Origin: an uncultured Planctomycetales bacterium
GTDB lineage: Bacteria; Planctomycetota; MHYJ01; JACPRB01
DNA: 64,000 nucleotides
Direction: 5' to 3'
Assembly: GCA_964619955.1 (NCBI GenBank)
Contig: CAZUJF010000004.1
Span: forward strand, 10,595 to 74,594
The position numbers and the translations under genes were made by a program. The notes beneath the pieces were generated by a model. The model had not been told where the DNA came from. It searched no databases and was given only the letters and a program-made list of their open reading frames with translations. Of the stretch, positions 29,118 to 50,000 are shown one piece after another; position 1 is the first letter of the stretch, and each line of letters opens with the position of its first letter.

Positions 29118-29915
29118 CTACCGCAGCACGAGCACCGGGACCGGGCTTGCGCGGAGGACCTGCTCCGTGACGCTGCCCAGCGTCCAGCGCGTGAAGCCCG
29201 AGCGGCCGTGCGTCGACATCGCGATCAGCGTCGCCTTCAGCGACGCCGCGTGGTCCAGGATCTTCGACGCCGGACGGCCCAGGTCGATATGCACCTGCGC
29301 CTTGCCCGCCGCCACCCCCAGCAGCTTCGCCTTCAGCTCGTCCGCCTGCAGCTGGTAGAAGCGCGACACGACGTCGTCCGCCCCCAGCCTCGACGGCCCC
29401 GCGTAGGCCTCCACCACCCCCAGCAGGTGCAGCGCCCCCGGCCGCGCGGGAAACAGCTTCCACAGCCGGACCAGCCCCTGTTCCGCCAGCTCCGAGCCGT
29501 CCTGCGGCGCCAGCACGCAGCCCAGCAGACTCCCCGCCGGAGACGACCCCTTCGGCACCGCCAGCACCGGCAGCGTCGCCGCCCTCAACACCTGCTCCGC
29601 CACCGAGCCCAGCCGCAGCAGATCCCAGCCGCTCCGTCCGTGCATCGACAGCGCGATCAGCCCCGCGCCCGACTTCGGCGCCGTCTCCAGGATCACCCTC
29701 GCCGCCGGCCCCGCCTGCGTCAGCCGCACGACCTCGCCGACCCCGGACGCCTTCAGACGCTGCTCGACCCCGTCGAAGTACGATCCCGGCACCACGCTCC
29801 CGTCCGCCGCGTGCAGGAGCACGACCTTCGCGGGACCCAGCCCCGCCACGGCGGCGACGGCCAGGTCCGCCTCGGCGGATCCGTCCAGCGGCAGCAGCAC
29901 TTGGAGCGCACTCAT
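29118..29915 (-). CDS. tandem universal stress protein (two UspA domains)
   Basis: Two repeats of VLLPLDGS...LIALSMHGRSG...GSVAEQVLRAATLPVLAV and LIAMSTHGRSGFTRWTLGSVTEQVLRASPVPVLVLR. Confidence 0.8.
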   Translation of the reverse strand: MSALQVLLPLDGSAEADLAVAAVAGLGPAKVVLLHAADGSVVPGSYFDGVEQRLKASGVGEVVRLTQAGPAARVILETAPKSGAGLIALSMHGRSGWDLLRLGSVAEQVLRAATLPVLAVPKGSSPAGSLLGCVLAPQDGSELAEQGLVRLWKLFPARPGALHLLGVVEAYAGPSRLGADDVVSRFYQLQADELKAKLLGVAAGKAQVHIDLGRPASKILDHAASLKATLIAMSTHGRSGFTRWTLGSVTEQVLRASPVPVLVLR

Positions 29916-30871
29916 GACGGCCTCCCGGATTCAGGCAGCGCCTCCGCCTTCGCCGCGTGTTTCGGCGGCCAGAGCAGCGACGCCGCGATCGACAGCGCCA
30001 GCACCCCCACGATCACCCCCAGCGAGAGGCCGATCGGGATGTGGACGCCGAAATACACGATCAACATCTTCACGCCGACGAAGGACAGGATGAACGCCAG
30101 CCCGTACTTGAGGTACACGAAGAGCCCCATGCAGCCCGCCAGCGCGAAATACAACGAGCGCAGCCCCAGGATCGCGAAGACGTTCGACGTGTAGACGATG
30201 AACGTGTCCGTCGTCACCGCGAAGATCGCCGGGATCGAGTCCAGCGCGAAGACGAGGTCCGTCATCTCCACCGTCAGCAGGACCAGGAACAGCGGCGTCG
30301 CCAGGCGTTTCCCGTTCTCCTTGACGAAGAAGTTCGCCTCCCGGTAGTCCGTCGTCACCGGGAACAGCTTCCGGAAGAGCCGGACGACGACGTTCTCCCC
30401 GACCTCCTTCTCGCTCTCCTTCGAGAAGGCCAGCTTGACCCCCGTGACCACCAGCAGCGCGCCGAAGACGTACATGATCCAGCTGAACTGCTTGATCAGC
30501 GCCGCCCCCACCACGATCATGCCCGCCCGCATCACCAGCGCCCCGAGGATGCCCCAGAAGAGCACCTTGTGCTGATAGGCCGGCTGCACCTTGAAGTACG
30601 AGAAGAGCACGAGAATGACGAAGAGGTTGTCGACGCTCAGCGACTTCTCGAGCACGTAGCCCGTCAGGAATTTCAGCGCGAGATCCGGGCCCTTCCAGTG
30701 CCAGATCCAGGCGTTGAAGATCAGCGCCAGCACGACCCAGACGGCGCTCCACGCGAGCGCCTCCTTCACCTTGACCGTGTGCGATTTGCGGTGAAAGACC
30801 CCCAGATCCAGCGCCAGCATCACGAGGACGAAGGCGTTGAACGCGACCCACGGGATCCATTGTTCGGGCAT
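29912..30871 (-). CDS. TerC-family integral membrane protein
   Basis: Typical TerC sequence VLEKSLSVDNLFVILVLFSYFKVQPAYQHKVLFWGILGALVMRAGMI and a second half LDSIPAIFAVTTDTFIVYTSNVFAILGLRSLYF. Coupled to the USP gene (overlap at 29912-29915). Confidence 0.85.
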   Translation of the reverse strand: MPEQWIPWVAFNAFVLVMLALDLGVFHRKSHTVKVKEALAWSAVWVVLALIFNAWIWHWKGPDLALKFLTGYVLEKSLSVDNLFVILVLFSYFKVQPAYQHKVLFWGILGALVMRAGMIVVGAALIKQFSWIMYVFGALLVVTGVKLAFSKESEKEVGENVVVRLFRKLFPVTTDYREANFFVKENGKRLATPLFLVLLTVEMTDLVFALDSIPAIFAVTTDTFIVYTSNVFAILGLRSLYFALAGCMGLFVYLKYGLAFILSFVGVKMLIVYFGVHIPIGLSLGVIVGVLALSIAASLLWPPKHAAKAEALPESGRPS

Positions 30872-31503: not shown

Positions 31504-33348
31504 ATGAGCGAGAGCACGCCCGCCCCTTCCCTGAAGCTGAAGACGCTCTGGCCGGAGATCCGGGCCCTCGTCCGGCCGCGGCGCGGGCTGCTCGCGCTGG
31601 GCCTCGTCCTCATGGCCGTCAACCGCGTCGCCGGCCTCGTGCTCCCGGCCGCCTCCAAGTTCCTCATCGACGACGTCATCCTCCGGCACCGGCAGCAGCT
31701 GCTCTGGCCGCTGCTCCTCTCCGTCCTGGGGGCGACGCTGGTCCAGGGCGCCTCGTCGTTCGCGCTCACCCAGCTGCTCTCGAAAGCCGCCCAGCGCCTG
31801 ATCGCCGAACTGCGGCAGAAAGTCCAGGCGCACGTCGGCCGCCTGCCCGTGTCCTATTACGACTCCAACAAATCCGGGGCGCTGGTCTCCCGCATCATGA
31901 CCGACGTGGAGGGCGTGCGGAACCTGATCGGCACCGGCCTGGTCGAACTCGTCGGCGGCCTGCTCACCGCGGCGCTCGCCCTGGTCGTGCTCACTCGCCT
32001 CAGCCCCTCCATGACCCTCTTCGCGTTCAGCTGCCTCCTCGTGTTCTCCCTCGTCCTCCGGAAGGCCTTCAAGACCTTGCGGCCCGTCTTCCGCGAGCGG
32101 GGGAAAATCAACGCGGAGGTCACCGGACGGCTCACGGAATCGCTGGGCGGCGTGCGCGTGGTGAAGGGCTATCACGCCGAGGAGGGCGAGGAGCGCGTCT
32201 TCGCCGCCGGCGTGAAGCGGCTGCTCGACAACGTCCTGCGCACCCTCACCGGCATGTCCCTGATGAGCCTCGCCTCGACGCTGCTCCTGGGCTTCGTGGG
32301 CGCCGTGATCATGTACCTGGGCGCGCGGCAGATCGAGGCGGGGACCCTGACGCTGGGGGAGTTCTTCACGTACACGCTCTTCCTCGGATTCCTGGTGGCC
32401 CCCATCTTCCAGCTCGTGAGCATCGGGACCCAGATCACGGAGGCGCTCGCCGGACTGGAACGCACGCGCGAAGTCATGAGCCAGCGGCCGGAGGATGCCG
32501 ACCCCGACCGCACGGAAGTCCTGGCCGCACCGCGGGGCGAGATCCGCTTCGAATCCGTCGGCTTCGCCTACGAGGCGGACAAACCCGTGCTCAAGAACGT
32601 CGGCTTCAGCGCGGCCCCGGGCAGCGTCACGGCCCTCGTGGGATCCTCGGGGTCGGGCAAGTCGACGATCATCAGCCTGATCGCGGCGTTCTACAAACCG
32701 TCGTCCGGCAGGATCCTCGTCGACGGGATCGATCTCAGCCGGGTTCGGCTCGACTCCTACCGGCGGTCCCTCGGCGTCGTCCTGCAGGACTCCTTCCTCT
32801 TCGACGGCAGCATCCGGGACAACGTCCTCTTCTCGCGTCCCGGCGCGGGCGAAGAAGATCTTCGTCGAGTCTGCGGCATCGCACGCGTGGACGAGTTCGC
32901 GGAAGGCTTCGAGAAGGGTTACGACACGATCGTCGGCGAGCGCGGCGTGAAGCTCTCCGGGGGGCAGCGCCAGCGGATCTCGATCGCGCGCGCGCTGCTG
33001 GCCGACCCGAGGATCCTGATCCTCGACGAGGCGACGTCGAGCCTCGACTCCGAATCCGAAACCCTGATCCAGGAGGGGCTTTCGAAGCTCATGGCCGGGC
33101 GGACGACCTTCGTGATCGCCCACCGCCTGAGCACGATCCGGAAGGCGGACCAGATCCTCGTGGTGGAGGGCGGCGAGATCGTCGAGCGCGGGACGCACGC
33201 GCAGCTCTTCGCCGCGCGGGGCCGCTACCACGACCTCTACACGCGGCAGCACGGGGTGGAATCCAACCTCTTCCTGGCCCCGGGCGAGGGCGACGCCGCG
33301 ATCGAAGCCCCGCCTCCCCCGCCCTCCGAGCCCGGCAGCGCGATTTAA
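31504..33348 (+). CDS. ABC transporter, fused permease/ATP-binding protein (type I exporter, MsbA-like)
   Basis: Six-TM domain followed by an NBD: Walker A GSSGSGKST, signature LSGGQRQR, Walker B ILILDEATS. The convergent stop overlaps in TTAA with the 33345 gene. Confidence 0.9.
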   Translation: MSESTPAPSLKLKTLWPEIRALVRPRRGLLALGLVLMAVNRVAGLVLPAASKFLIDDVILRHRQQLLWPLLLSVLGATLVQGASSFALTQLLSKAAQRLIAELRQKVQAHVGRLPVSYYDSNKSGALVSRIMTDVEGVRNLIGTGLVELVGGLLTAALALVVLTRLSPSMTLFAFSCLLVFSLVLRKAFKTLRPVFRERGKINAEVTGRLTESLGGVRVVKGYHAEEGEERVFAAGVKRLLDNVLRTLTGMSLMSLASTLLLGFVGAVIMYLGARQIEAGTLTLGEFFTYTLFLGFLVAPIFQLVSIGTQITEALAGLERTREVMSQRPEDADPDRTEVLAAPRGEIRFESVGFAYEADKPVLKNVGFSAAPGSVTALVGSSGSGKSTIISLIAAFYKPSSGRILVDGIDLSRVRLDSYRRSLGVVLQDSFLFDGSIRDNVLFSRPGAGEEDLRRVCGIARVDEFAEGFEKGYDTIVGERGVKLSGGQRQRISIARALLADPRILILDEATSSLDSESETLIQEGLSKLMAGRTTFVIAHRLSTIRKADQILVVEGGEIVERGTHAQLFAARGRYHDLYTRQHGVESNLFLAPGEGDAAIEAPPPPPSEPGSAI

Positions 33349-35579
33349 TGCGCCTCGGGCGAGAGGCGCTCGTAGGGGAGCATCGTGGGCAGCTCCTCCA
33401 GGGTGATCTGCCCCGCCGAGACCAGCTCCAGCGCGCTGTCGCGGAGCGGCACCAGGCCCGCCTTGAACGCCAGCGCGCGCAGCTCGTCCAGCGGCGGGCG
33501 CATCGAGATCGCCGTCCGCAGCGGGATGTTGGTCTTGAGGAACTCCACCACCGCCACGCGGCCGATCGTCCCGTGGCCGCCGCAGCGGAGGCAGCCCGCG
33601 CCGCGGTAGAACTTCTGCCCGGCCGGGACGCCGGACGGGAACACCGCCTTGAGCAGGTCCTCTTTCGGCGACGCCTCGACCCGGCAGCCCTCGCAGATCC
33701 GGCGCGCGAGACGCTGGCTGATCACCGACAGCAGCTCGCTCGCGATCGAGTTCGGATGCATGCCCAGGTCCACGAGGCGCTGGACGGCGTCCGTCGTGTC
33801 GTTGCAGTGCAGCGTGGAGAGGACCAGGTGGCCGGTCTGCGAGGCGCGGATGCCCTCGAGCGCCGTCTCGGCGTCGCGGATCTCCCCCACGAGGATCACG
33901 TCGGGGTCCTGGCGCACGAACGAACGCATGGCGTGGGCGAAGGAGAATCCGATCTCGGGCCTCACGTGCGTCTGCTGGACGTCCTCGATCGAATACTCGA
34001 TCGGGTCCTCGACCGTGATCACCTTCCGCGTCGGGTCGCGGGCGAGGATCTCGAGCCCGGCGTAGAGCGTGGTGCTCTTGCCGGAGCCCGTGGGCCCGAC
34101 GACGAGCACCAGGCCGGACGGATGTTCCAGCAGGCGGCGGTACTCCGCGGCCAGCCGCGGGGCGAAGCCCAGGTCCTCGATGGTCAGCAGCTTGCTGTCC
34201 TGGGGCAGCAGCCGGACGACGACATGCTCCCCGTGCAGGGAGGGCTGCGTCTGCACCCGCAGGTCGAAGTTCTTTCCGGACGTCTTGACCCGGATGCGCC
34301 CGCCCTGGGGCAGGCGCCGCTCGGAGATGTCCATCTCCCCCCGGATCTTGATCACGTTCACGATGCCCAGCAGGTCCGCCGGGGACAGCCGGTAGCGGGT
34401 CATGTCCCGGAGGTCGCCGTCGACCCGCATCCGCACCCGGACGCGAGGGCCGTAGCGCTCCAGATGGATGTCGCTGGAACGCTCCCCGATGGCGTCCAGC
34501 AGCATGGATTCGAAGAGCTGGATGTAACGGGCCTCGGAGCGGTGTTCGCCGGACTGCAGTTCGTCCTCGACCCCGGCCGCGACGGGGGGCGCCGTCTTGG
34601 CCCCGCTCTTGAGCAGGTCGGCCGTCGCCCAGAGGCGCCGGTAGTCGGTGGGCGTCACCAGGATGAGCTCGACCACGGAGGGATGAAAGGCTTTCGCCAG
34701 CTCCGCGACCTGGAGATCGGGGTCGCAGGTGGCCACCCGCATGTCGCCCTTGCCCCGGCTCACCGGAATCATCCGATGGTGCTCGAGGAAGAGCCGGGAG
34801 AGCGACCCCACGAGATCCAGATCCAGCTCCGGCGTCAGCGAGTCCACGGTCTCGAAGCGGATGCCCCGCTGTTCGGCGAGGGCGCGGTAGAGGTCGGCCT
34901 CGGGGACCTGGCCCTGGTCCCGCAGCAGCTCCCCCAGGAGCCGGTGCTGGCCGGCCGCCTCGCGCGCCAGCTGGTCCACCTTCTCGCGGTCGACGGCGCC
35001 CGCCTCCACCAGGAGGTCCCCGAGGCGGCGCACGTGGCGGAGCTCGCCGAGGCGCTCCTCGACGAATTCCTCCTCCGCCTTCCGGACCGTCCGGACCAGC
35101 ATCGTCTTCGAGCGGATCTGGACCAGGCGGCCGCCGACGGCCAGGCGCCGCTTCAGGTCGGGCGGCAGCGTCACGGCCCCGCAGCCGACCAGGATGGCGT
35201 CGTAGTCCTGTCCGCCGACGCGGGGCGAGATCTTCACGCGGGAGATCTCCAGCTCCGCCAGCGTCTTCCGGGCCGCCGCGGCGAGAGGCTCGCACTCCTC
35301 GACGCCGAAGACCTCCGCTCCGAGCTTGGACAGCACGGCGCTGCTGAAGCCCACGCCGGAGCCGATCTCGAGCACCCGCTGGCCCGGCTTGAGTTCCAGG
35401 GCCTCGAGCATCCGGGCGAGCACCTCGACGGGCTGGAGGAGGCGGCCCTCGCGCGCGATGCGGTGCCCCGGATCGCGGTCCAGCGCCGAAAGCTCCGCGG
35501 CGAGGAAACGCTCCCTCGGCACCTCCGAGAAGGCGCGCTCCAGCCGCGGGTCGCGGATCCCCGCGCGTTTCAACGGCAT
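33345..35579 (-). CDS. fusion protein: protein-L-isoaspartate O-methyltransferase (PCMT)-like domain + T2SSE_N domain + GspE/PilB-type secretion ATPase
   Basis: The start MPLKRAGIRDPRLERAF (35579) overlaps the upstream USP stop (TGATG). PCMT motifs VLEIGSGVGFSSAVL and AILVGCGAVTLPPDLKRRLAVGGRLV. GspE motifs: Walker A VVGPTGSGKSTT, VGEIRD, LSTLHCNDT, and the tetra-Cys CEGCR...CLRCGGHG. Confidence 0.8.
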   Translation of the reverse strand: MPLKRAGIRDPRLERAFSEVPRERFLAAELSALDRDPGHRIAREGRLLQPVEVLARMLEALELKPGQRVLEIGSGVGFSSAVLSKLGAEVFGVEECEPLAAAARKTLAELEISRVKISPRVGGQDYDAILVGCGAVTLPPDLKRRLAVGGRLVQIRSKTMLVRTVRKAEEEFVEERLGELRHVRRLGDLLVEAGAVDREKVDQLAREAAGQHRLLGELLRDQGQVPEADLYRALAEQRGIRFETVDSLTPELDLDLVGSLSRLFLEHHRMIPVSRGKGDMRVATCDPDLQVAELAKAFHPSVVELILVTPTDYRRLWATADLLKSGAKTAPPVAAGVEDELQSGEHRSEARYIQLFESMLLDAIGERSSDIHLERYGPRVRVRMRVDGDLRDMTRYRLSPADLLGIVNVIKIRGEMDISERRLPQGGRIRVKTSGKNFDLRVQTQPSLHGEHVVVRLLPQDSKLLTIEDLGFAPRLAAEYRRLLEHPSGLVLVVGPTGSGKSTTLYAGLEILARDPTRKVITVEDPIEYSIEDVQQTHVRPEIGFSFAHAMRSFVRQDPDVILVGEIRDAETALEGIRASQTGHLVLSTLHCNDTTDAVQRLVDLGMHPNSIASELLSVISQRLARRICEGCRVEASPKEDLLKAVFPSGVPAGQKFYRGAGCLRCGGHGTIGRVAVVEFLKTNIPLRTAISMRPPLDELRALAFKAGLVPLRDSALELVSAGQITLEELPTMLPYERLSPEAH

Positions 35580-36415
35580 CAAGGCGCGCCTCCGGGCCTC
35601 GTCCACGGCTCGGCCCGAAGTCCGGGGGCGGCCTCGGGGGGGCACACGAGCAGCGGGCAGGCGGCATGGCGCAGAACGTATTCCGTCACGCTGCCGGTCA
35701 GCAGGCGCGAGATCCCGCTGCGGTGGTGGCTCATCATGCAGATGAGGCCGATGTTCGACTCCTTCGCATAACGCACGATCTCCTCCCCGGGATGCCCGTG
35801 GCGGAGCACCGGCATCGATTTGAGCCCGGCAGCCTCGAGGCGCGCCCGGTGGGAGGCGAGGTACTCGACCGGATCGCTGTCGCGGGTGATCCTCAGCAGA
35901 TGCAGGAGGGCGTGGTTCTCGGAGGCCAGGCGCCGCGCGGCCGGCAGGATCAGCTCCGATTCGGGGCTGCCGTCGAGCGTCACCAGGATCTGACCCCAGG
36001 AAGCCCCCTTGTCCCCCGGCCGGGTGAGGAGCAGCGGGACGCGGGCCTGACGGAGGACCTCCTCGGCCACGCTGCCCATCAGGGCCTTGGGCACGACGCC
36101 GCGTCCGTGGGTGGTCATGGCGATCAGGGACTGCTGCCGGGCCTTCGCGAAGAGCAGGATCTCCTCGGCGGGCCGACCCAGCCCCAGGGCGCTGAAGACC
36201 TCGATGCGCTGCGAGTGGAGGCGGCGGCGGACGTCCTCCAGGTAATGCTTCGCCTCGGCCGCCGCCGGCGGGTTGTCCGCCGCGGCCACGCGGAAGAGGG
36301 TGGCGTCGATCAGCGTCTGCCGGAGGGGCAGTTTCAGACAGGACAGGATCGTCTCGGAATCCCCGGAGCCGTCGAGCGGGACGACCGTGGGGATCGGGCG
36401 CCGGTTCATAGCCAC
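35579..36415 (-). CDS. tandem universal stress protein
   Basis: Two Usp repeats (LIAMTTHGRGVVPKALMGSVAEEVLRQARVPLLL and LICMMSHHRSGISRLLTGSVTEYVLRHAACPLLV). Confidence 0.8.
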   Translation of the reverse strand: MAMNRRPIPTVVPLDGSGDSETILSCLKLPLRQTLIDATLFRVAAADNPPAAAEAKHYLEDVRRRLHSQRIEVFSALGLGRPAEEILLFAKARQQSLIAMTTHGRGVVPKALMGSVAEEVLRQARVPLLLTRPGDKGASWGQILVTLDGSPESELILPAARRLASENHALLHLLRITRDSDPVEYLASHRARLEAAGLKSMPVLRHGHPGEEIVRYAKESNIGLICMMSHHRSGISRLLTGSVTEYVLRHAACPLLVCPPEAAPGLRAEPWTRPGGAP

Positions 36416-36428
36416 CTCCGCGGCCGGA

Positions 36429-37340
36429 TCAGCCGGAACGGACCATCAGCAGGGGGACGCCGACCGAGCGGAGCACGCGCTCCGCCACGGAGCCGAGCAT
36501 CCAGCGGGCCACCCCGCTGCGGCCGTGCGTCGCCATCACGACCAGATCGATGCCCGAGGCGAAGCTCAGATCCACGATCTCCGCCGCGGGATCGCCCGAA
36601 AGCGTCCGCCGCGTCACGCGCAGGCCGGCTTGATGCAACCGCTCGGCCGCCTTCGCCGTCGCCGGATCCAGGTCCGAGGCGGGCGGGGGCACGGGCTCCA
36701 CCACCGCCGCCTCCATCCCCGGCAGGATCGCGGCCGAGGGCGGCCAGGGCGGGACCACGTGCAGGACGAGGAACTCGGAGTCGAAGCATTGTCCCATCTT
36801 GACCGCGGCGCCCAGCACCGCCAGCGACGCCTCGCTTCCGTCGACCGGCAGCAGGATCTTCCGGAACGGGAACTCCTCGGGGGTCGCGGGCTCCAGGTCT
36901 CCGTGCGGGGTCCGCCGGAACGAGCGGACGAGGAGCACCGGCACGGGGCTCGCCCGCAGGACTTTCTCGGCCACGCTTCCCATCGTCCAGCGCGCGACCC
37001 CGCTGCGTCCGTGGGTGGTCATGGCGATCATGGTCGCGCCTTCGTCCTTCGCCGCCTGCAGCACCGTCTCGGCGGGGGCCCCTTCCGCGACGCGCGCGTG
37101 CACCTTCACCGTGCGGCCCGTGCCGATGCGCTTCGCGAGCTCGTGCAGGTAGGCCTGGGCCTCCTCCCGTTCCCGTGTCACCTGCGCGCCCGTGTCCCGC
37201 CGCTCCAGGGAGGGCGGATGGGAGATCACGCGCAGGAGCAGGATCTCCGCGTCCTCGCGTTTGAGGATGCGTCCGATCTGGCCGAGCACCAGTTCCGCGC
37301 GGGGCGATCCGTCCAGGGGCACCAGCAGACGTTCGAACAT
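36429..37340 (-). CDS. tandem universal stress protein
   Basis: MFERLLVPLDGS...MIAMTTHGRSGVARWTMGSVAEKVLRASPVPVLLV and a second repeat ...LVVMATHGRSGVARWMLGSVAERVLRSVGVPLLMV. Confidence 0.8.
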   Translation of the reverse strand: MFERLLVPLDGSPRAELVLGQIGRILKREDAEILLLRVISHPPSLERRDTGAQVTREREEAQAYLHELAKRIGTGRTVKVHARVAEGAPAETVLQAAKDEGATMIAMTTHGRSGVARWTMGSVAEKVLRASPVPVLLVRSFRRTPHGDLEPATPEEFPFRKILLPVDGSEASLAVLGAAVKMGQCFDSEFLVLHVVPPWPPSAAILPGMEAAVVEPVPPPASDLDPATAKAAERLHQAGLRVTRRTLSGDPAAEIVDLSFASGIDLVVMATHGRSGVARWMLGSVAERVLRSVGVPLLMVRSG

Positions 37341-37484
37341 GGTCGGCGTCCTCCGTCACAAACTCCGGCAGGAAAGAGAGCAAGCGGGGGGCCAGCCTCG
37401 AATCCGCAGGGAGCCGCAGCGGCCCCGCGGACTTTTACGCCCTCTCAGGGGAGAATCCGGGGTCCCGCAGAAAAGGAGGTGACA

Positions 37485-37506
37485 GCTTTTTGCCGGTGCG
37501 TATAAT
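37485..37506 (+). promoter_or_regulatory. putative sigma70-like promoter for tRNA-Ser (GTGACA-16nt-TATAAT)
   Basis: The -10 box TATAAT at 37501-37506 lies about 16 nt upstream of the tRNA 5' end. A GTGACA -35-like hexamer lies 16 nt further upstream. Confidence 0.35.
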
Positions 37507-37522: not shown

Positions 37523-37614
37523 GGAGAGGTGGCAGAGTGGCCGATTGCGGCGGCTTGCTAAGCCGTTAGTCGGGGTTACCCGACTCCAGGGTTCGAATCC
37601 CTGCCTCTCCGCCA
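37523..37614 (+). tRNA. tRNA-Ser(GCU): tRNA-Ser (anticodon GCU), class II with a long variable arm, CCA encoded
   Basis: Acceptor stem GGAGAGG/CCTCTCC. Three-bp D-stem. Anticodon loop TTGCTAA (GCT). Long variable arm. T-arm CAGGG-TTCGAAT-CCCTG. Discriminator G followed by CCA. Confidence 0.9.
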
Positions 37615-37639: not shown

Positions 37640-38545
37640 ATGACGACGAATTTCACCAAGCTCTCCGACGAGCAGCTCCTCGGCCTGCTCAAGACCCAGG
37701 AGGACGACCTCGACCGCGAGGCCGTCGATGAGATCCTCCGCCGCGGCGAACGCCTGGGACCCCGCCTCCTGCCCATGGCCACCGACGCCGCCCTCTGGGA
37801 CGCCGGGCCCCCCGCCCACGAAGCGCCCGTGCACGCCGTGCTGCTGCTCGGACGCCTCCGGCCCCCCGGCGCCCTCGCCGCCATCCTCGACGCCCTCGAA
37901 CTCGCCATCGAACACGAACAGGTCGACCTGCTCGACCCCGCCTACGATCTGCTCGCCGGCTTCGGACCCGAGCACGTCGCCGAGCTGCGCGCCGCGTATC
38001 CCGACCGCAGCCCCTACGCCCGCCTCTGGCTCAACGACGCCCTCACCTGGATCGGCAGCAAACATCCCGCCGCACGGAGCGCCGCGCGGGACCACCTGCT
38101 GAACTCCGCCCTGAAAGACCCCGAGGACGAAATCCGCGGCACCGCCGCCGAACTCTTCCTCGCCCTCGCCGGGCCCGAAGACCAGGCCGTCCTCGACAAA
38201 CTCCTCCGCGATCACGACCTCGACGAGGCGGACGTCGACGCCGCCCGCGAAGGCAAGGGCCCCCTCCCCATCGACCCTCCGCTCGACCCCCTCGACTTCT
38301 ACAGCGAGGACGCCCGCCTCAACCGCCTGCGCTACAACAACGACCTCGAGGACGACATGGACCTCGAGGAGATCCTCCCCTCCTCCGCCTCCATGCAGGT
38401 CTATTCCCAGATCGCCTCGGCGGAGCCCGACGCGGAGGACGGCGACCTCCGCATCACCCCCCACGTCAACGAGACCGAGGCCCCCGGACGCAACGACCCC
38501 TGCCCCTGCGGGAGCGGCAAGAAACACAAGAAGTGCTGCGGGTAG
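37640..38545 (+). CDS. SEC-C motif domain protein with an N-terminal helical-repeat region
   Basis: The C-terminus NDPCPCGSGKKHKKCCG is a canonical SEC-C metal-binding motif. Acidic linker before it. Confidence 0.75.
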   Translation: MTTNFTKLSDEQLLGLLKTQEDDLDREAVDEILRRGERLGPRLLPMATDAALWDAGPPAHEAPVHAVLLLGRLRPPGALAAILDALELAIEHEQVDLLDPAYDLLAGFGPEHVAELRAAYPDRSPYARLWLNDALTWIGSKHPAARSAARDHLLNSALKDPEDEIRGTAAELFLALAGPEDQAVLDKLLRDHDLDEADVDAAREGKGPLPIDPPLDPLDFYSEDARLNRLRYNNDLEDDMDLEEILPSSASMQVYSQIASAEPDAEDGDLRITPHVNETEAPGRNDPCPCGSGKKHKKCCG

Positions 38546-38695: not shown

Positions 38696-41600
38696 ATGGG
38701 AGAATTGAATCCCGAGGTCTTCCAGGACCTCCAATCCGCGGAGAAACTGCGGCCCCTCTTCGAGGCCGCCGGTCTGCCCCTCCGCACCTGGGAGGCCTAC
38801 GCCTTCGCCTTCAACGAACGCACGCTGCTCCGGCGGGAACTCACCCGCGTCTCCGAGGGCCGCGGCGCCCCCGCCATCCACCCCGAAGTCCTGGAGCGTC
38901 TCCAGGCCCTCCGCAGCGAACTCGACCCCCTCGTCGAAGGGCTCCGCCCCTTCCTCCCCCCGGGACCGCGCAGCGACGCGGAGGCCGAACTCGACGAGAT
39001 GGTCCTCGGCTTCATCGCCATCTCCCCCACCGCCCGCGACATCGCCCAGCAGTGGGTCGCGGACCCTCAACGCTACCGGGCCGAAGCCGCGAAGAAACTC
39101 CAGATCATCGAAACCGTCGTCCAGCGCTACCGGAACGCCCTGCGGACCGAGATCGACCGCGAGATCAGCTCCGGGTTCGTCCCCCCGCCGCAGATCCCGC
39201 GCCTCCCCGCCCCCGGCGTCTTCGAGGCCTCCGCGACCAACGGCGAAGTCACGCTGATCTGGAGCCCGGTCTCCGGCGCCATGCACTTCATCCTCCGCCG
39301 CGCCGTGATGAAGACCGGCCCCTGGAAGGAGATCGCGCGCCCCGCCGAGGACTGCTACAGCGACACGGGCCTTCCCAACGCCACGACGTTCTATTACACC
39401 CTGAGCCCCGTCAGCCCCGCCGGCATCGAAGGCGCCGCCGCCGGTCCCGTCGAGGCCACCCCGCAGGCCCCGCCGCCCGTCCCCGTCGGGCTCGCCGCCC
39501 GTCCCGGCAACGCGAGCGTGGCGCTCCGCTGGATGTCCTCCCCCGGCGCGATCCGCTACCGCCTCCTGCGCGCGACCTCCCCCGCGGGCCCCTTCAGCCC
39601 CGCCGCGATCACGGACGTCCCGGCCCACACGGACCGCGACGTCCAGAACGGCCAGACCTATTTCTACGCGGTCGCCTCCGTGAATCCGGCGGGGGAAAGC
39701 CCCGCCTGCCCCGCCCTGCCCGCCACCCCCGTGGCCCCGCCCCCGGCCCCCGCCGGGGTCCAGGCCCAGCCCGGCAACGCCCGCGTCAGCTGCTCGTGGC
39801 AGCCCGTCCCCGGCGCCCTCCGCTACCGGGTCGTCCGCCGCCCCGCCGCCGCGGAGGCCGGCTGGACCGAACTCGGCACGCCCGCGCAGCCGCCCCTGCT
39901 GGACGTCTCCGTCGCCAACGGCACGACCTACGAATACGCGGTGCACGCGATCAACGCCGGCGGCGAAGGCCCCGCCTCGGCCCCCGTCTCCGCCACCCCC
40001 GTCGGCGCGCCCGAGATCCCGCGCGGCCTCCGGGCCCAGGCCGGCAACGGGGAGATCACGCTGGACTGGACGCCCGTCGCGGGGGCCGTCACCTACGCCG
40101 TGCGGCGCTCCCCACCCTCGGGCGACCGCTGGACGCTCGTCGCCCAGCCGGCGTCGCCGCCGTACACGGACACGGGCCTCCCCCACGGGCAGGCCTGGCT
40201 CTACACCGTCGCGGCGCAGAACGCCGGCGGCGAAAGCCCCCCCGGCGCCCCGCTGCCCGCCGCGCCCTGCGCGCCGCCCCCCGCGCCGATGAACCTCGAG
40301 ACCCACGCGGCCAACGGACGCGTGACGCTCACGTGGCGCCCGGTGCCCGGCGCCGACCGCTATCTGCTCAAGCGCGCCGCCGCCCCGGGAGGGCCCTTCG
40401 ACCTCGTCGCCGCGATCCCCGGCCTGAGCCATCTCGACGGCGGCCTGCCGAACCACGCCACCGTCTACTACACGCTCTCCGCCGCGAACGCGGGGGGCGA
40501 GAGCACCCCCTCGGCCCCCGTGGCCGCCACCCCCGTCGAACCGCCGGCCGCCCCGGCCGACGTGACGGCGACGGCGGAGAACGCCCGCATCCGGCTCGCC
40601 TGGTCCGCCGTGCCGGGCGCGCAGCGCTATCGCGTGATGCGCTCGACGACGCCCGGCGGCCCCTACACGGCCGTCGCCAGCCCCTCCGAGCCCGCGCACG
40701 TCGACGCCGACGTGAGCAACGGCCTCTGCTACTACTATGTCATCCGCGCCCTCAACGTCGGCGGCAAGGGCCCGCATTCGGCCCAGGTCGAGGCCCGGCC
40801 CGTCGCCGCGCCCCCCGCCCCCGAAAGCCTGCTCGCCCACGCCGGCAACGGACAGGTCGCGCTGAGCTGGAATCCCGTGCCCGGCGCGACCCATTACGCG
40901 CTGCGCCGCTGGCCCGAGGACCGCATCGTCGCCACGCCCGCCGCGCCGTCCTGCCTCGACACCGGCGTGAGCAACGGCACGACGTACCGCTACGCCGTCC
41001 TCGCGCTCAACGCCGGCGGCGAAGGCCCCGCCTCCGCCCCCGTGGAGGCCACCCCGCTGGCCCCGCCCGCCGCCCCGACGGGGCTCGGCGCGCTCGCCAC
41101 GAACGCCCGCGTCGCCCTGTCCTGGACGCCCTCGCCGCGCGCCGCCGCCTACCTCGTCCGGCGCGCCGCCGGTCCCGAGGGCCTCTTCGAGACGATCGGA
41201 AGCACCGAGGCCCCCTCGTTCATCGATCTGTCCGCCAGCAACGGGACGCTCTACAGCTACCGCATCATCGCCGTCAACGCCGGGGGCGAGGGGGAGGCGA
41301 CGGCGCCCGTCGGCGCCCGGCCCCAGGCCCCGCCTCCCGCGCCGACGGGCCTCGTCGTGTCCCCCGGCAACGGGCAGGTCGGCCTCTCGTGGATACCGTC
41401 CCCGCGCGCCGCCACCTACCGGGTGCTCCGGCGGACGGGCGACGGGCCCGCGGCGGCCGTCGCCTCGCCGGTGGAGCCGCGGCATCTCGACGTCGGGCTC
41501 GAGAACGGACGCGCCTACCGCTACGTCATCCACGCGCTCAACACCGGGGGCGAAAGCGACGCGTCCGCGGAGGCGGAGGCCCTGCCGCTGGGGCCGCCGG

Positions 41601-44020
41601 GGCCGGTGGGCACCCTCGAAGCCGGCGCGGGCAACGGGCAGGTCTCGCTCGTCTGGCTCCCGGTCGAAGGGGCCGGGCTCTACGTGGTGCGGCGCGCCGT
41701 GGCGGCGGAGGGCCCCTTCGCGACGGTCGCCACGCTGACGCAGTGCGCCCACGTCGACGGCGGCCTCTCCAACGGGACGACGTACTACTACAGCGTCGCG
41801 GCGCAAAGCATCGGAGGCGAGGGTCCTTCCGCGCCCCCGACGGCCGTGGTTCCGATCGCCCCGCCCGCCGCCCCCACGGGCCTCAGCGCGTCCCCGGGCA
41901 ACGGGCAGGTCACGCTCACGTGGGCTCCCGCGGCGCGCGCCGCCGGATACCTGGTGAAACGCGCGCCGCATCCGGGCGGCGCCTTCGCCCCCGCGGCCTC
42001 GACCGTGGACCCCCTTCTCGTGGACGCGTCCCTGCAGAACGGGACGGCCTACCGCTACGTCGTCAGCGCCGTGAACCGGGGGGGCGAAAGTCCTCCGTCG
42101 GCGGAGGCGACCTGCACCCCGATCGCGCCGCCGGCGGCGCCCGCCGCGCCGACCGTGGCGGCGGGCAGCGGCGAGGTCCTGCTCCAGTGGGACCCGGTGC
42201 CCGGCGCGGATTACTACCGTCTCAAACGCGCCGTCGAGCGCAAGGGGCCCTACGCCACCATCGGCAACGTCTCGCGCCCGCGGCATCTCGATGCGGGGCT
42301 GCAGGACGGCACGACGTACTACTATGTCGTGTCCGCCGTCAACGGCGGCGGGCGCAGCGGGCACAGTCCGCGGGTCGCCGCCACGCCGCAGGCGCCGCCG
42401 CCCGCGCCGCGGGATCTGATGGCCGTGCCCGGCAGCGCGCGCGTCACGCTCAAATGGAGCGCCGTCGAGGGCGCGACCTCGTACAGCCTCAAACGCGCGG
42501 CCCGGCCCGGCGGCCCCTACCAGACGATCCTGCGCACGCCGCAGACCTCGGCGGTCGACACGCGCGTCGAGAACGGCGCCACGTATTTCTACGTCGTGCG
42601 CGCCGGCGTGAACGCGGTCAAGGGGCCGTTCTCCCCCGAGGTCTCGGCGACGCCCCTGGCCCTGCCGGCGGTGCCGTCGGGCCTGCAGGCGGTCCCCGGT
42701 CCCGGCTCCATCCGCCTCACGTGGATCCCCGTCCCGGGCGCCTCGGCCTACGTCGTCCGCCGTTCGAGCGGGGGCGGGGACTTCGAGGTCGCCGCCCATC
42801 CGGACGGTCCCGCCTGGGAGGACCTCGGGCTGCTGGACGGCGTCGCCCACGCCTACACCGTGGCCGCGGAGAATTCCGGCGGCGAAAGCGGGCCTTCGGA
42901 GCCGGCGACGTCGGCCGCGGTGGCCGCCCCGGCGGTGCCGACGGGCCTGAGGGCGGTGCCCTCGAACGGCGAGGTCACGCTCGGGTGGTCGCCGGTGCCG
43001 GGCGCGTCCCGCTACCGCGTGAAGCGGGCGTCCCTCCCGGCGGGGCCCTTCGCGACGCTGGCCGAGCCCCCGAGCCCGCTCTACACGGACACGAAGCTCG
43101 CCAACGGCGTGACGCTCTATTACGCGGTCAGCGCGATCAACGCGCACGGTGAGAGCCCGGACAGCTACCCGGCCTCCACGACGCCCGTGGGTCCGCCGCC
43201 GGTCCCCGAGAACCTGAGCGCGATCCCCGGCCCGTCGAAGATCGTCCTGGGCTGGAGTCCGGCCCCCTTCGCCGTGCGCTACCGCATCATGCGCGCGGAC
43301 GGCCCGGGCGGCCCGTACACGCTCGTGGGCAGCCCGCGGGACCCCGCGTACACCGACTGCCCGCTGGAGAACGGCCGGCCCCGGCACTACGTCGTGAGCG
43401 CGGTCAACGCCGGCGGCGAAAGCGCCAATTCGGCGGAGGTCTCGGCCGTCCCCCAGGGCGCGCCGATGCCGGAGTCCGCCGGCACGAAGACCGACGAGGT
43501 GCCCACCCTCGAATCCATCGCCATGCCCCGGGGCGAGCAGATGCAGGGGATCGACTACGAGCGCCTGCTGGACCTGCGGCGCGTGGAGCAGCTGCGCTCG
43601 CTCTTCGAGGACACCGCGCAGAAGTTCGAGGAGTGGGAGGTGCTCGCGCTCATCGCCGAGGACGGGACGGAGGCGCGGCGCTCGCTCGAGAGCCTGCTCC
43701 GCCTGAAGCGGCAGAAGCAGGCGCCGGCGTTCACGACGGGGGCCGTCGCGCTCTTCGAGAAGGTCCTCCGCGTACGGGCCCAGCACGGCGCCTTCGCGCG
43801 CAGGCTGCGGGTCTTCCTGGCGGGCCTGGACATCGCCCCGCCGGGCCCCGACACGCTGGAGATCGCGCTCGGCTTCCTCCTGCAGGCCCCGAAGGGGCGC
43901 CAGCGCATGGCCCAGTGGCTTGAGAACCCGGAGGCCTCGCGGGCCCAGGCCTCGGGCTACATGCGCATGACCTACGAAATCGCCGAGCGCTACCGCATGG
44001 CGCTCGCATCGACCGCGTGA
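38696..44020 (+). CDS. giant protein with 16 tandem fibronectin type III-like repeats (~88 aa each); no signal peptide
   Basis: Repeating unit P.AP.GL.A..GN..V.L.W..VPGA..Y.V.R...P.GP....A......TD....NG..YYY.V.A.N..GES..S..V.ATP. The out-of-frame ORFs 38680..43152 (+) and 38636..43786 (-) are R/G-rich artefacts. Confidence 0.8.
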   Translation: MGELNPEVFQDLQSAEKLRPLFEAAGLPLRTWEAYAFAFNERTLLRRELTRVSEGRGAPAIHPEVLERLQALRSELDPLVEGLRPFLPPGPRSDAEAELDEMVLGFIAISPTARDIAQQWVADPQRYRAEAAKKLQIIETVVQRYRNALRTEIDREISSGFVPPPQIPRLPAPGVFEASATNGEVTLIWSPVSGAMHFILRRAVMKTGPWKEIARPAEDCYSDTGLPNATTFYYTLSPVSPAGIEGAAAGPVEATPQAPPPVPVGLAARPGNASVALRWMSSPGAIRYRLLRATSPAGPFSPAAITDVPAHTDRDVQNGQTYFYAVASVNPAGESPACPALPATPVAPPPAPAGVQAQPGNARVSCSWQPVPGALRYRVVRRPAAAEAGWTELGTPAQPPLLDVSVANGTTYEYAVHAINAGGEGPASAPVSATPVGAPEIPRGLRAQAGNGEITLDWTPVAGAVTYAVRRSPPSGDRWTLVAQPASPPYTDTGLPHGQAWLYTVAAQNAGGESPPGAPLPAAPCAPPPAPMNLETHAANGRVTLTWRPVPGADRYLLKRAAAPGGPFDLVAAIPGLSHLDGGLPNHATVYYTLSAANAGGESTPSAPVAATPVEPPAAPADVTATAENARIRLAWSAVPGAQRYRVMRSTTPGGPYTAVASPSEPAHVDADVSNGLCYYYVIRALNVGGKGPHSAQVEARPVAAPPAPESLLAHAGNGQVALSWNPVPGATHYALRRWPEDRIVATPAAPSCLDTGVSNGTTYRYAVLALNAGGEGPASAPVEATPLAPPAAPTGLGALATNARVALSWTPSPRAAAYLVRRAAGPEGLFETIGSTEAPSFIDLSASNGTLYSYRIIAVNAGGEGEATAPVGARPQAPPPAPTGLVVSPGNGQVGLSWIPSPRAATYRVLRRTGDGPAAAVASPVEPRHLDVGLENGRAYRYVIHALNTGGESDASAEAEALPLGPPGPVGTLEAGAGNGQVSLVWLPVEGAGLYVVRRAVAAEGPFATVATLTQCAHVDGGLSNGTTYYYSVAAQSIGGEGPSAPPTAVVPIAPPAAPTGLSASPGNGQVTLTWAPAARAAGYLVKRAPHPGGAFAPAASTVDPLLVDASLQNGTAYRYVVSAVNRGGESPPSAEATCTPIAPPAAPAAPTVAAGSGEVLLQWDPVPGADYYRLKRAVERKGPYATIGNVSRPRHLDAGLQDGTTYYYVVSAVNGGGRSGHSPRVAATPQAPPPAPRDLMAVPGSARVTLKWSAVEGATSYSLKRAARPGGPYQTILRTPQTSAVDTRVENGATYFYVVRAGVNAVKGPFSPEVSATPLALPAVPSGLQAVPGPGSIRLTWIPVPGASAYVVRRSSGGGDFEVAAHPDGPAWEDLGLLDGVAHAYTVAAENSGGESGPSEPATSAAVAAPAVPTGLRAVPSNGEVTLGWSPVPGASRYRVKRASLPAGPFATLAEPPSPLYTDTKLANGVTLYYAVSAINAHGESPDSYPASTTPVGPPPVPENLSAIPGPSKIVLGWSPAPFAVRYRIMRADGPGGPYTLVGSPRDPAYTDCPLENGRPRHYVVSAVNAGGESANSAEVSAVPQGAPMPESAGTKTDEVPTLESIAMPRGEQMQGIDYERLLDLRRVEQLRSLFEDTAQKFEEWEVLALIAEDGTEARRSLESLLRLKRQKQAPAFTTGAVALFEKVLRVRAQHGAFARRLRVFLAGLDIAPPGPDTLEIALGFLLQAPKGRQRMAQWLENPEASRAQASGYMRMTYEIAERYRMALASTA
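39200..43450 (+). repeat. about 264-bp periodic tandem repeat at the DNA level (16 diverged units), internal to the FN3 giant gene
   Basis: Protein-level periodicity is visible. Units have diverged and are not identical copies. Confidence 0.6.
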
Positions 44021-47095: not shown

Positions 47096-50000
47096 TTGAT
47101 GGCGGACCAGGCCCCCCTCCCCTCCTGCGCCTGCGGCGCCGCCCTGGCGCCGGGCGTCGCCGTCTGCCCCGCCTGCGCCGCCAAGCCGGCCCCGGACGCG
47201 TCCCTCCTGAAGATCTCCAAACAGACCAGCACGCCCGCCACCGCCCGCCGGGCGCCGGGCACCACGACCCCGGCCCCCAAACACGAGCCTTCCCGCGAGC
47301 CGCCCCTGCCCGCCCCCATCAAGGGCTACAGCTTCGTCAAGCGGCTGGGCTCGGGCGGCATGGGGGACGTCTACCTCGCGCGCCAGGAAAGCCTCGACCG
47401 GCTCGTCGCCATCAAGCTGCTGCCCCCGGAACTGGCCAAGGACAAGGCCTACGTCGAGGGCTTCATGCGCGAGGCCCGCTCGGCGGGCCGGGTCACCCAC
47501 GAGAACATCATGGGGTCCATCGACGTCGGCGAATCCGAAGGCCGCTACTACTTCGTCATGGAGTACGTGAAGGGCGAGACGCTCTTCCGCCTCATCAAAC
47601 AGGAAAAGAAGCTCGGCGAGGTGAAGGCCCTCACCCTCGCCCGGCAGATTTCGCGCGGCCTGCGTCATGCCCACCAGCTCAACATCATCCACCGCGACAT
47701 CAAACCCAAGAACATCCTCATCACCCCCGAGGGGACCGCCAAGATCTGCGACTTCGGCCTCGCCACCACCGTCAAGGCCCTCGACGGCGCGGCCGGGGAC
47801 GACGATGAGACCGTCCACACGACCCCGGCGTACGCGTCGCCCGAGCAGTGCCGCGCGGACCCCCTCGACCACCGCAGCGACATCTATTCGCTCGGCGTCT
47901 CGCTGTTCGAGATGCTCACGGGGCGGCGCCCCTTCACCGCCGCCACGTCCCAGGAGCTGATGACCAAGCAGGTCACCGAGCCCCCGCCCGACCCCCGCAC
48001 CCTCAACCCCCAGATTTCCGAGGGCGCGGCCAAGCTGACCCTGCGCATGCTGCGCAAGCACCGCGACGAGCGCTTCAAGGATTACGACGAGCTCCTCCGC
48101 GTGCTCGACGGCCTGCTCGGGCCCCGCACCGGAAGGCACAGCGCTCCGCCCGCGGCGCTCGAGGGCGCCCCGCGCGAGGGCGGCGGCAGGAAACCGCTGC
48201 TGATCGGCGCTTCCGCCGCGGCGGCGGTCCTCATCCTCGTCCTCGCCCTGGTCTTCCGGGGCGGCCCGCCCGCGCCCCCGCCCGCTCCCGCGCCCGCGCC
48301 GGTCTCCAAGGCGTCCCTGCTGGAAGCCGAGGTGAAACGGCTGCTCGAGGAAATGCGGGGCGTGCAGAAGGAGGCGCAGGGGAAACACGGGGAATACGAC
48401 CTCGTCCGCGCCCGCTGGAAGGAGCTGGAGGAGCGTTTCGCCGGAAAGCCCGCGCAGGCGCTCTTCGCCGCCGCCCGCATCGACTTCGAGAAATCCGTGG
48501 GCGAGGAGGCCGAGACCATCGCGAAGGATCTCATCAGCGACGCCGACGCCCATCTCAAACTGGGCCGCCCCGCGGAGGCCCTGCAGGCGCTGAAGAAATT
48601 CCCCGTCGAGCTGTCGGCCACGCCGGCCGGCAACCGCGTCGCCCAGAAGGCGCTGGCGGCGGAGAACGCGATCAACACCCGCTTCAATGAAGGGCTCCAG
48701 AAGGCGTCCCAGCTGCTGGCCGCCGAGAAGCCGCTCGAGGCCCGGCGCGAGGCGACGGCCCTGATTTCGGCGCTCTCGCTCGACGCCCCCTCGGGGGAGG
48801 GCCGGACCCAGATGCGGCAGCAGCTGGACGAGTTCCTCCGGCGCGTGTCCGACGCCGAGGCGCTCGCGGCCAAGAAACCCGAGCCCGCCGCCCCCGTGGA
48901 GACCGCCAAGGTGCCCGTGCCGGCCAAGACCCCCGAGCCGCCCGTGCCGGGGACGCCGGCGCCCGCCGTGCCCGCCGGGCGCACGGCCAAGGTCCGGCCC
49001 GCCGCGGGCGCCGCCCTGATCCACTACTCCGTCCTGCGCAGCCCCGTGGAACGGGCCGAGACCGAGAAGCGCAGCGCCGCGGCCGGCTGGTTCGGCAACC
49101 GCACGGTCCCCTTCGCGTTCTGGCGCGCCGCCGCGGTGTTCCTGAACCGCAGCGACGAGCAGTGGAAGCTCCAGGGTCCCGTGCAGGCGGCCCTCGGCGA
49201 GTATCTCGAGGCCGTTCCCGTGCTCACCGAGGCCTCGGATCCGCTGACGCCGGAGCAGCACCAGTCCCTGCTGGAACTGCTCGCCCAGAAGATCTCCACG
49301 GCCGGCGCCGAGCCGGTCGAGGCGCTGCAGCTCTTCGCGCTCGCCCACCTCCAGGAACTGACCCGGAAGAAGCTGAAGGTCGACCCCGCCCTGCTCCTGC
49401 AGGCCCGGCTGGGCAAGGCCCCCGCCGGCGACCTCTGGGGTCCGGTCTCCTCCGTGGCGCGCCTCGAAATGGCCGGCATGCTCTCCAAGCCCCCGGGCCT
49501 CTGGCTGGCCAAGGCCGCCGAGTCGGCGTCCCTGTCCCCCGACTTCGCGACGCGCTACCTCGGCGCCCTCTGCGCGGTGAAGGAACTGAGCTTCGACGCC
49601 GCCGCCGTCACCGACCGCTGGAAGAAGCTCGCCGGCTCCACCACCGACCCGGCCTGGATCAAGATCTGCGACACCGTCGTCGACCGCATCAAGGCCGAAA
49701 CCACCTGCGAGCTGTGCAGCGGCCAGGGCCGCTACGCCTGCAGCGCCTGCCTCGGCCTGGGCGCCCAGGTCTGCCTCCCCTGCAAGAGCACGGGCAAGAT
49801 CATCGACCCCTCCGAGGGCGGTTCCATCACCTGCACGGCCTGCCGGGGCCGCCGCGTCATCGCCTGCCCCACCTGCACGGGGCAGAAGGCCGTCAAATGC
49901 CCGGCCTGCGACGGCAAGAAGTCCCGCCCCTCCGTCACGGGGTCGCATTTCCGCCTCTTCGCCGACCTCGCCCTCTGCACGGCCTGCGACGGCTCGGGCA

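Follow-up and report, generated by a model that had tools for sequence, protein, structure and literature searches.

Organisation of the locus

The stretch of DNA analysed in this work, hereafter the window, comprises 64,000 nucleotides (nt) of contig CAZUJF010000004.1 (assembly GCA_964619955.1) from an uncultured Planctomycetales bacterium. It carries a gene coding for a single protein in which a domain derived from protein-L-isoaspartate O-methyltransferase (PCMT) is joined to an MshEN domain and to a PilB/GspE-type ATPase of the kind that drives type IV pili (T4P) and type II secretion systems (T2SS). This fusion gene lies behind two genes for tandem universal stress proteins (USPs), and the composition of the window (69% GC, with a GC content at third codon positions above 0.9), together with the coding strand, marks out the three as co-oriented minus-strand genes. 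The features of the locus are the following (position 1 is the first letter of the window; aa, amino acids).

36429..37340, minus strand: tandem-USP gene 1 (USP1), 303 aa, two PF00582 domains (E 3.3e-62); first gene of the putative operon
35579..36409, minus strand: tandem-USP gene 2 (USP2), two PF00582 domains (E 1.6e-40); its stop overlaps the fusion ATG (TGATG)
33345..35579, minus strand: fusion gene, an uninterrupted open reading frame (ORF) of 744 aa from ATG 35579, 100% identical to public protein P0276
35031..35579, minus strand: PCMT-derived Rossmann domain (PF01135, alignments with stand-alone PCMTs, AlphaFold2 model of the domain)
34869..35027, minus strand: tandem 24-residue MshEN_N motif, candidate site for cyclic di-GMP (c-di-GMP), RLGDLLVEAGAVDREKVDQLAREA-AGQHR-LLGELLRDQGQVPEADLYRALAEQ (relaxed motif; NF053729 just below its cut-off)
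34629..34847, minus strand: remaining MshEN/GSPII domain (PF05157; PDB matches to the PilF GSPII-B domain 8pfa and the MshE N-domain 5htl)
33390..34538, minus strand: PilB/GspE-type ATPase core, N2 plus C-terminal domain (CTD) (PF00437; Foldseek against PilF 5oiu)
34071..34097, minus strand: Walker A motif GPTGSGKST
33582..33695, minus strand: tetracysteine site

The three genes follow one another with intergenic gaps of 19 nt and −1 nt. The TGATG overlap between USP2 and the fusion gene maps to 35577..35581, the ATG sharing its A with the USP2 stop codon, and a GGAGG sequence is found at 35589..35593, 9 nt before the fusion ATG. Another GGAGG precedes the USP1 ATG by 9 nt. As listed, the USP2 ORF extends over 35579..36415 on the minus strand (278 aa, from a GTG); its start is likely ATG 36409, because a GGAGG lies just upstream of this codon and the listed GTG sits within that Shine-Dalgarno sequence. 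On the strand of the three genes no terminator-like site was found between them. Given the common orientation, the short gaps, a GGAGG for each start and the lack of terminator-like sites in between, a three-gene operon is the simplest reading of the arrangement, and co-transcription of USP1, USP2 and the fusion gene is very likely. A previous sequence-only reading of this DNA had described two tandem-USP genes ahead of the fusion and the TGATG overlap, and both the coordinates and the Usp domains were borne out. No riboswitch of the c-di-GMP or S-adenosylmethionine (AdoMet) type was detected upstream of the operon, Rfam matches being restricted to tRNA. At its other end the fusion gene meets an ABC exporter gene (31504..33348, plus strand), which converges with it; since their 3' ends overlap by 4 nt (33345..33348), there is no space for a terminator between the two.

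The start codon of the fusion gene may be ATG 35579 or one of two upstream GTG codons, at 35606 (753 aa) and 35645 (766 aa). The GTG starts would bring back the first PCMT helix, which has a counterpart in close homologues, and the match to NF001453 begins upstream of ATG 35579, at aa 14 of the 766-aa form; the public record is the 744-aa form. Protein coordinates are hereafter given in the 766-aa numbering.

Domain composition of the fusion protein

Comparison of the protein with Pfam returned PF01135 (PCMT) at aa 23-205 (79.2 bits against a cut-off of 20.3, E 4.9e-22), PF05157 (MshEN, formerly T2SSE_N) at aa 267-339 (28.3 bits against 23.1, E 1.7e-6) and PF00437 (T2SSE) at aa 370-752 (359 bits, E 2e-107). 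The proposal that a PCMT, an MshEN and a GspE/PilB-type ATPase domain coexist in one chain is thus confirmed, all three being found in one ORF. In alignments with PDB sequences, residues 15-207 match bacterial protein-L-isoaspartate methyltransferases (PIMTs), and the alignment of residues 204-752 extends over the full length of PilB and PilF. An AlphaFold model of the fusion protein built on 72 homologues reached a predicted local distance difference test score (pLDDT) of 88.4. The junction is seamless, in that the last PCMT strand, LRHVRRLG, passes directly into the first MshEN motif, RLGDLLVEAGAV.

The fusion is genuine, conserved and widespread

Window positions 32967..35668, which span the whole ORF, recur with 100% identity in a contig (L088) that was assembled separately from a public sequencing run, and the frameshift or assembly error that the sequence-only reading had named as a danger to its proposal is therefore not there. 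The search for orthologous fusions that it had suggested proved productive. Specifically, an exhaustive HMMER search of 1.84 billion representatives returned about 25 clusters of 735-776 aa whose match to the query starts near residue 30 and reaches its end, and with a profile 496 matches at E≤1e-30 were obtained among 5.8 billion proteins; PF01135, PF05157 and PF00437 occur together in nearly all of the top 120 of these 496. By means of a hidden Markov model (HMM) derived from stand-alone PCMTs, a PCMT-like N-terminus was recognised in 140 retrieved proteins including the window protein, and the architecture recurs in at least 139 database proteins besides it. Species-representative genomes were also scanned with the clade-specific patterns E[RH]RLPQGGR and D[LV]R[VI]QTQP[SA], which yielded 315 candidate loci; among the best 80 of these, the PCMT part is covered in 77, two being cut by contig ends and one (L075) unclear. 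The same PCMT/MshEN junction, from the last PCMT strand into the RLGDLLV motif of MshEN, is found in well over a hundred homologues. The earlier statement that this is not a standard architecture is accordingly not supported.

Two earlier results had pointed elsewhere. A word-indexed search with the N-terminal 360 aa gave stand-alone PCMTs only, as if the fusion were unique or artefactual, and was overturned by the exhaustive and profile searches; the same searches superseded a null first genome scan made with single-sequence patterns.

The fusion is hosted by Planctomycetota, by Myxococcota (Sandaracinus, Nannocystaceae, Polyangiaceae, Haliangium and Persicimonas) and by many Gammaproteobacteria (about twenty Marinobacter species, Porticoccus, Halopseudomonas, Spongiibacter, Wenzhouxiangella and Elongatibacter). 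Database names of these proteins include 'PilB', 'ATPase, T2SS/T4P/T4SS family' (T4SS, type IV secretion system), 'TadA' and 'protein-L-isoaspartate O-methyltransferase'. Full-text searches of open-access papers and preprints found no paper describing the family, and the publication in which MshEN was defined (PMC5013675) does not use the word 'methyltransferase' in its main text. In conclusion, the PCMT-MshEN-PilB fusion is genuine, conserved and widespread, and is undescribed in the searchable literature although present in databases under generic names.

The methyltransferase-like domain keeps cofactor motifs and loses the motifs of isoaspartate recognition

The 140 fusions and 114 stand-alone PCMTs were aligned to one HMM. 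The PCMT-like domain of the window protein shows about 40% identity to stand-alone bacterial PCMTs; its AdoMet motif I reads VLEIGSGVGF, and the acidic residue that follows strand 2 is present as well (GVEE). Across the fusions, the motif I glycines are kept at 94, 92 and 98%, the acidic residue is Glu in 85% and Asp in a further 10%, the Pro of the APFD segment is kept in 85% and the second Gly of GGRLV in 94%.

A different picture is obtained for the elements that recognise the substrate. In PIMT structures, the Ser of the QTISQPY loop contacts the isoaspartyl carboxylate. This loop is 93-100% conserved per position in the stand-alone PCMTs, but retention at the seven positions drops to 12, 7, 11, 6, 2, 35 and 0% in the fusions. 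The loop Ser (Ser61) is kept in 6% of the fusions and is replaced by Pro in 43 of the 140, and the C-terminal VPL is kept in 11%; loop Ser and VPL reach 98-100% in the stand-alone enzymes. The window protein reads GRLLQPV at the QTISQPY site and RHVRRL at the VRFVPL site, and it is without the TISQP, GDG Asp and IPVG elements. GDG is replaced by RVG, and segments of 6 and 4 residues are missing, two changes that its nearest relatives share only partly. Close relatives conserve another loop, EG(R/Q)xxPPP(E/D), in place of QTISQPY, which suggests a changed binding site rather than simple decay.

An AlphaFold2 model of the N-terminal domain (pLDDT 83.6) gave twelve top Foldseek matches in the PDB that are all PIMT structures, with template modelling (TM) scores of about 0.7. 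Compared with free-standing Pcm/PIMT, the domain has retained the fold together with motif I for AdoMet, the acidic position that follows strand 2 and GGRLV, but it lacks QTISQPY, the GDG Asp, IPVG and the C-terminal VPL, and it is joined to a motor. Its scores against the equivalog models fall below cut-off, at 106.8 bits against 188 for NF001453 and 81.6 against 159 for TIGR00080. The assignment of the N-terminal ~200 aa to PCMT thus stands at the level of the Pfam family (79.2 bits) and fails at the level of the equivalogs, and the description of a 'complete-looking' repair methyltransferase does not hold, since the TISQP motif, the GDG Asp and two segments are missing from the window protein and the recognition motif is gone in about 90% of the family.

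All together, cofactor-binding motifs are kept and isoaspartate-recognition elements are lost, in the window protein as across the family. The PCMT-like domain is probably not an isoaspartate repair enzyme. On our reading of these alignments, it would still bind AdoMet or S-adenosylhomocysteine (AdoHcy), acting either as a ligand sensor or as a methyltransferase with a new acceptor.

The MshEN domain as a candidate c-di-GMP input

A relaxed version of the tandem 24-residue MshEN motif (PMC5013675) was used for scoring. Of its 22 constrained positions the window protein fits 18, including 10 of the 11 that belong to the first half, and a control region taken from these proteins reached 15 at most. 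The planctomycetotal and myxococcotal members have a median of 18/22, 19 of the 25 scoring 17 or more; for the gammaproteobacterial members the median is 14/22, close to background. These data make c-di-GMP binding plausible for the clade of the window protein, that is, the members from Planctomycetota and Myxococcota.

The motor ATPase and its relatives

The sequence-only reading had listed a Walker A motif, Asp box, His box and tetracysteine site; these, and Walker B, were found to be invariant in the 72-sequence alignment that includes the window protein. Since the catalytic motifs are invariant across these sequences, the motor looks catalytically competent. Its core superposes in the model on Thermus PilF (5oiu) with a Foldseek TM score normalised to the target (TMt) of 0.90 and a root-mean-square deviation (rmsd) of 2.5 Å. 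The scores against the PilB model TIGR02538 (418.9 against a cut-off of 675.65) and the GspE model TIGR02533 (410 against 630.25) are both below threshold, and PQDGR is absent from all fusions, most of which have PQGGR instead.

Pairwise identity within the family rises along the chain, from 34% in the PCMT-like domain and 39% in MshEN to 63% in N2 and 68% in the CTD. N-terminal modules that diverge faster than the motor are what is usually seen where a regulatory part is attached to a conserved engine. The nearest non-PCMT relatives of similar length have a second MshEN domain at the position of the PCMT-like domain.

The window protein shares with the extension ATPases of type IVa pili (MshE of V. 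cholerae, PilB of M. xanthus and Geobacter, PilF of T. thermophilus) an MshEN domain, here with a candidate tandem 24-residue motif, and an N2 plus CTD core with Walker A and B, Asp and His boxes and the tetracysteine zinc site. Unlike these, it has an extra PCMT-derived N-terminal domain, the signatures of its clade are PQGGR and DLRVQTQPS in place of PQDGR, and no linked PilC, PilM-Q or pilin genes were found. A modular expansion N-terminal to a conserved motor is known from PilB-like ATPases with duplicated or triplicated GSPII domains, such as T. thermophilus PilF, but in the fusions the added module is a Rossmann methyltransferase fold and not another GSPII.

Gene neighbourhoods across the family

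ORFs within 6 kb of the fusion gene were called and clustered in 85 loci. This clustering revealed no recurrent neighbour family of secretion or pilus machinery, and PilC/GspF, secretin or pilin neighbours were absent both from seven Pfam-annotated related loci and from the scanned ORFs of the window (most of the larger ones across the 64 kb), none of which gave a Pfam match to GspF/PilC, secretin or pilin. The earlier observation that no T2SS/T4P machinery genes sit near the fusion is thereby upheld for the scanned window ORFs. Its further proposal that the ATPase was repurposed away from secretion would fit the orphan status of the gene.

The sole strongly conserved neighbour is a 367-aa AAA_5 (MoxR-like) ATPase (E 6e-28), present in 47 loci that are essentially all gammaproteobacterial. 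Its gene, which in locus L056 occupies 12187..13290, lies immediately downstream of the fusion gene and often overlaps the fusion stop codon. No AAA_5 partner was detected by tblastn in the window or in the myxococcotal and planctomycetotal loci, where recurrences are limited to Ser/Thr kinases, a PilT-like gene (4 loci) and short-range synteny within Bradymonadales. The gammaproteobacterial fusion with its AAA_5 gene looks like a distinct two-gene form of the system. In the fusion proteins paired with AAA_5, the MshEN motif has degenerated. Persicimonas and Elongatibacter have gaps without genes behind the fusion gene, which were considered as decayed AAA_5 copies and turned out not to be so. 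In Elongatibacter sediminis (L003, 12289..13512) the gene-less stretch measures 1.2 kb and starts with an apparent 3' end of a transfer-messenger RNA (tmRNA) gene on the opposite strand, followed by direct repeats that are about 27-160 nt long.

USP genes occur within 6 kb of the fusion in 2 of the 85 loci, the window and L007. In L007 (60% identity) the Usp genes are on the opposite strand, among CBS, HSP20 and DksA-type genes; L002, the closest relative on a long contig (68% identity), has no USP genes, and the Elongatibacter locus has a DksA/TraR gene upstream of the fusion. Because so few loci have USP genes near the fusion, the USP linkage is a local, lineage-specific arrangement and not a family trait. 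This count answers in the negative the question, raised in the sequence-only reading, whether orthologous fusions conserve USP neighbours, and it does not support the view that the system as such stands 'under USP-type control'.

Other features of the window

The window is planctomycetal in gene content, with PSCyt1/PSCyt2/PSD1, DUF1501 and DUF1552 genes, and its neighbourhood is unusually USP-rich. A third tandem-USP gene (29118..29915, minus strand) overlaps by 4 nt the stop of a gene for a TerC-family membrane protein (29912..30871, minus strand). A tRNA-Ser(GCU) gene (37523..37614, plus strand) lies between the USP operon and a SEC-C/HEAT gene, and directly upstream of it, at 37479..37506, is a near-consensus sigma-70-like promoter, GTGACA-16-TATAAT (11/12). 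Conserved synteny of the HEAT-repeat neighbour (37640..38545) with L002 was considered and rejected, the two proteins being unrelated (BLASTP E 0.86).

Further along, a 1774-aa protein (38696..44020, plus strand) consists mostly of fibronectin type III repeats and is encoded by the most GC-rich part of the window (72-78% GC), and a 1365-aa Ser/Thr protein kinase (47096..51193, plus strand) contains an internal zinc-finger domain of the DnaJ type, CXXCXGXG. For the 'frameshifted lipoprotein-GspG' mentioned in the sequence-only reading, the sole candidate seen is a DUF2950 match at 52231..52860. An anti-phage defence system was also considered and discarded, the PADLOC matches being only generic methyltransferase and P-loop ones.

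Proposed mechanism and alternative explanations

We lean slightly towards the hypothesis of a PilB-type motor gated by its N-terminal module, which would respond to AdoMet/AdoHcy or act on a new methyl acceptor and, in the clade of the window protein, would also respond to c-di-GMP, with co-expression of USPs in this genome. The fusion protein belongs to a widespread, uncharacterised clade of PilB/MshE-like hexameric motor ATPases, in which a PCMT-derived Rossmann domain with AdoMet-binding motifs is joined seamlessly onto the N-terminal MshEN (GSPII) domain. The PCMT-like and MshEN domains may form a regulatory input module, the former binding AdoMet/AdoHcy or a new methyl acceptor and the latter c-di-GMP, and together they would gate ATP turnover of the motor. 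Membrane partners of the motor, if any, would be encoded elsewhere. In this genome, the fusion gene stands behind two tandem-USP genes with which it is probably co-expressed, a lineage-specific linkage that is not part of the system.

The regulatory step is the weakest link of this mechanism, and several observations weigh against it. NF053729, the model of the MshE-type c-di-GMP motif, scores 35.9 over aa 207-259 against a cut-off of 38 bits, and in the second half of the relaxed motif the window protein fits at no more than 8 of 11 positions. The window copy of the PCMT-like domain is among the more eroded members of the family; because it has RVG for GDG and misses two segments of 6 and 4 aa, AdoMet binding could be weakened in this protein. 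Moreover, PIMT-type enzymes have no catalytic base, and for this reason the sequence does not tell whether the domain is a sensor or a methyltransferase that is active on some new substrate.

It is possible, if rather doubtful, that the protein is a bifunctional enzyme, its PCMT-like domain being a protein carboxyl methyltransferase that is still active but has been directed to a new acceptor, so that methylation is physically coupled to the motor; the methyl group could go to a residue of the ATPase, to a platform protein or pilin, or to a substrate that is secreted. The strong selection on the AdoMet-binding motifs across the family speaks for this explanation, as does the replacement of the old substrate loop by the locally conserved EG(R/Q)xxPPP(E/D) and not by random sequence, and among the NCBIfam models of the PCMT family there are some for systems of peptide maturation, namely the methyltransferases of the FxLD system and of an ATP-grasp peptide maturase system. 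However, no conserved candidate substrate gene adjoins the fusion in Planctomycetota or Myxococcota, the N-terminal domain is the least conserved part of the chain, and the window copy is without the GDG Asp and the two segments. Quite unlikely, in our view, is a catalytically dead structural or docking domain that took the place of an extra GSPII and serves oligomerisation or partner binding with no small-molecule input. Such a domain would agree with the second MshEN of the same-length sister proteins and with the erosion of the window copy, and PCMT-fold proteins do occur inside larger assemblies in the PDB, namely the PIMT-like chain t of Paracoccus complex I (8qby) and eukaryotic PCMTD1 in a CUL5 ligase (9oma). 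These two cases resemble the fusion in that a PCMT-type domain has been recruited into a larger machine, but with other partners, other biology and no ATPase fusion, so that they serve as an analogy only; PCMTD1 binds AdoMet and is not known to have methyltransferase activity. The explanation does not predict that the motif I glycines (92-98%) and the ribose-binding acidic residue (95%) are conserved while the rest of the domain diverges.

The idea of a stress-activated module, in which the USP proteins and the ATPase make up one functional unit under USP control, draws on the operon-like arrangement with its stop/start overlap, on the Usp, CBS, HSP20 and DksA-type genes around the fusion in L007 and on the DksA/TraR gene upstream in Elongatibacter. 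We consider it very unlikely, as USP genes are near the fusion in 2 of the 85 loci only, lie on the opposite strand in L007 and are missing from L002; in addition, the adjacency may be due to chance because the window is USP-rich, with the third tandem-USP gene at 29118..29915. The explanation that pcm and pilB were joined artificially, by assembly or by a frameshift, is refuted by the identical separate assembly and by the more than 100 homologues with the same junction, and we give it practically no credence. Going beyond the gated motor that we favour, the fusions might constitute a distinct motor class off the pilus or secretion filament, in which a hexameric ATPase that does another job in the cell is under the joint control of c-di-GMP and of a step that depends on AdoMet, either the transfer of a methyl group to some new acceptor or a read-out of the AdoMet/AdoHcy ratio. 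The Planctomycetota and Myxococcota would have this class in a stand-alone form, and the Gammaproteobacteria in a second form that is paired with the MoxR-like AAA_5 ATPase. We regard this extension as unlikely.

Significance of the fusion family

For annotation, these data imply that the fusion proteins should not be called protein-L-isoaspartate O-methyltransferase, as some records do. The window itself adds little beyond one rather eroded member of the family, whose relevance lies in its breadth. Type IV pili and type II secretion are driven by PilB/GspE-type ATPases, and second-messenger control enters these motors at their N-terminal domains. A large clade of such motors with a conserved AdoMet-binding domain and no linked machinery would point to an unexplored regulatory input, either the status of the methyl cycle or a new protein methylation, and the clade may possibly represent a non-filament use of the motor. 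Since carriers of the family include genera that can be cultured and are probably amenable to genetics, among them Marinobacter, Halopseudomonas and Persicimonas, this question is directly testable.

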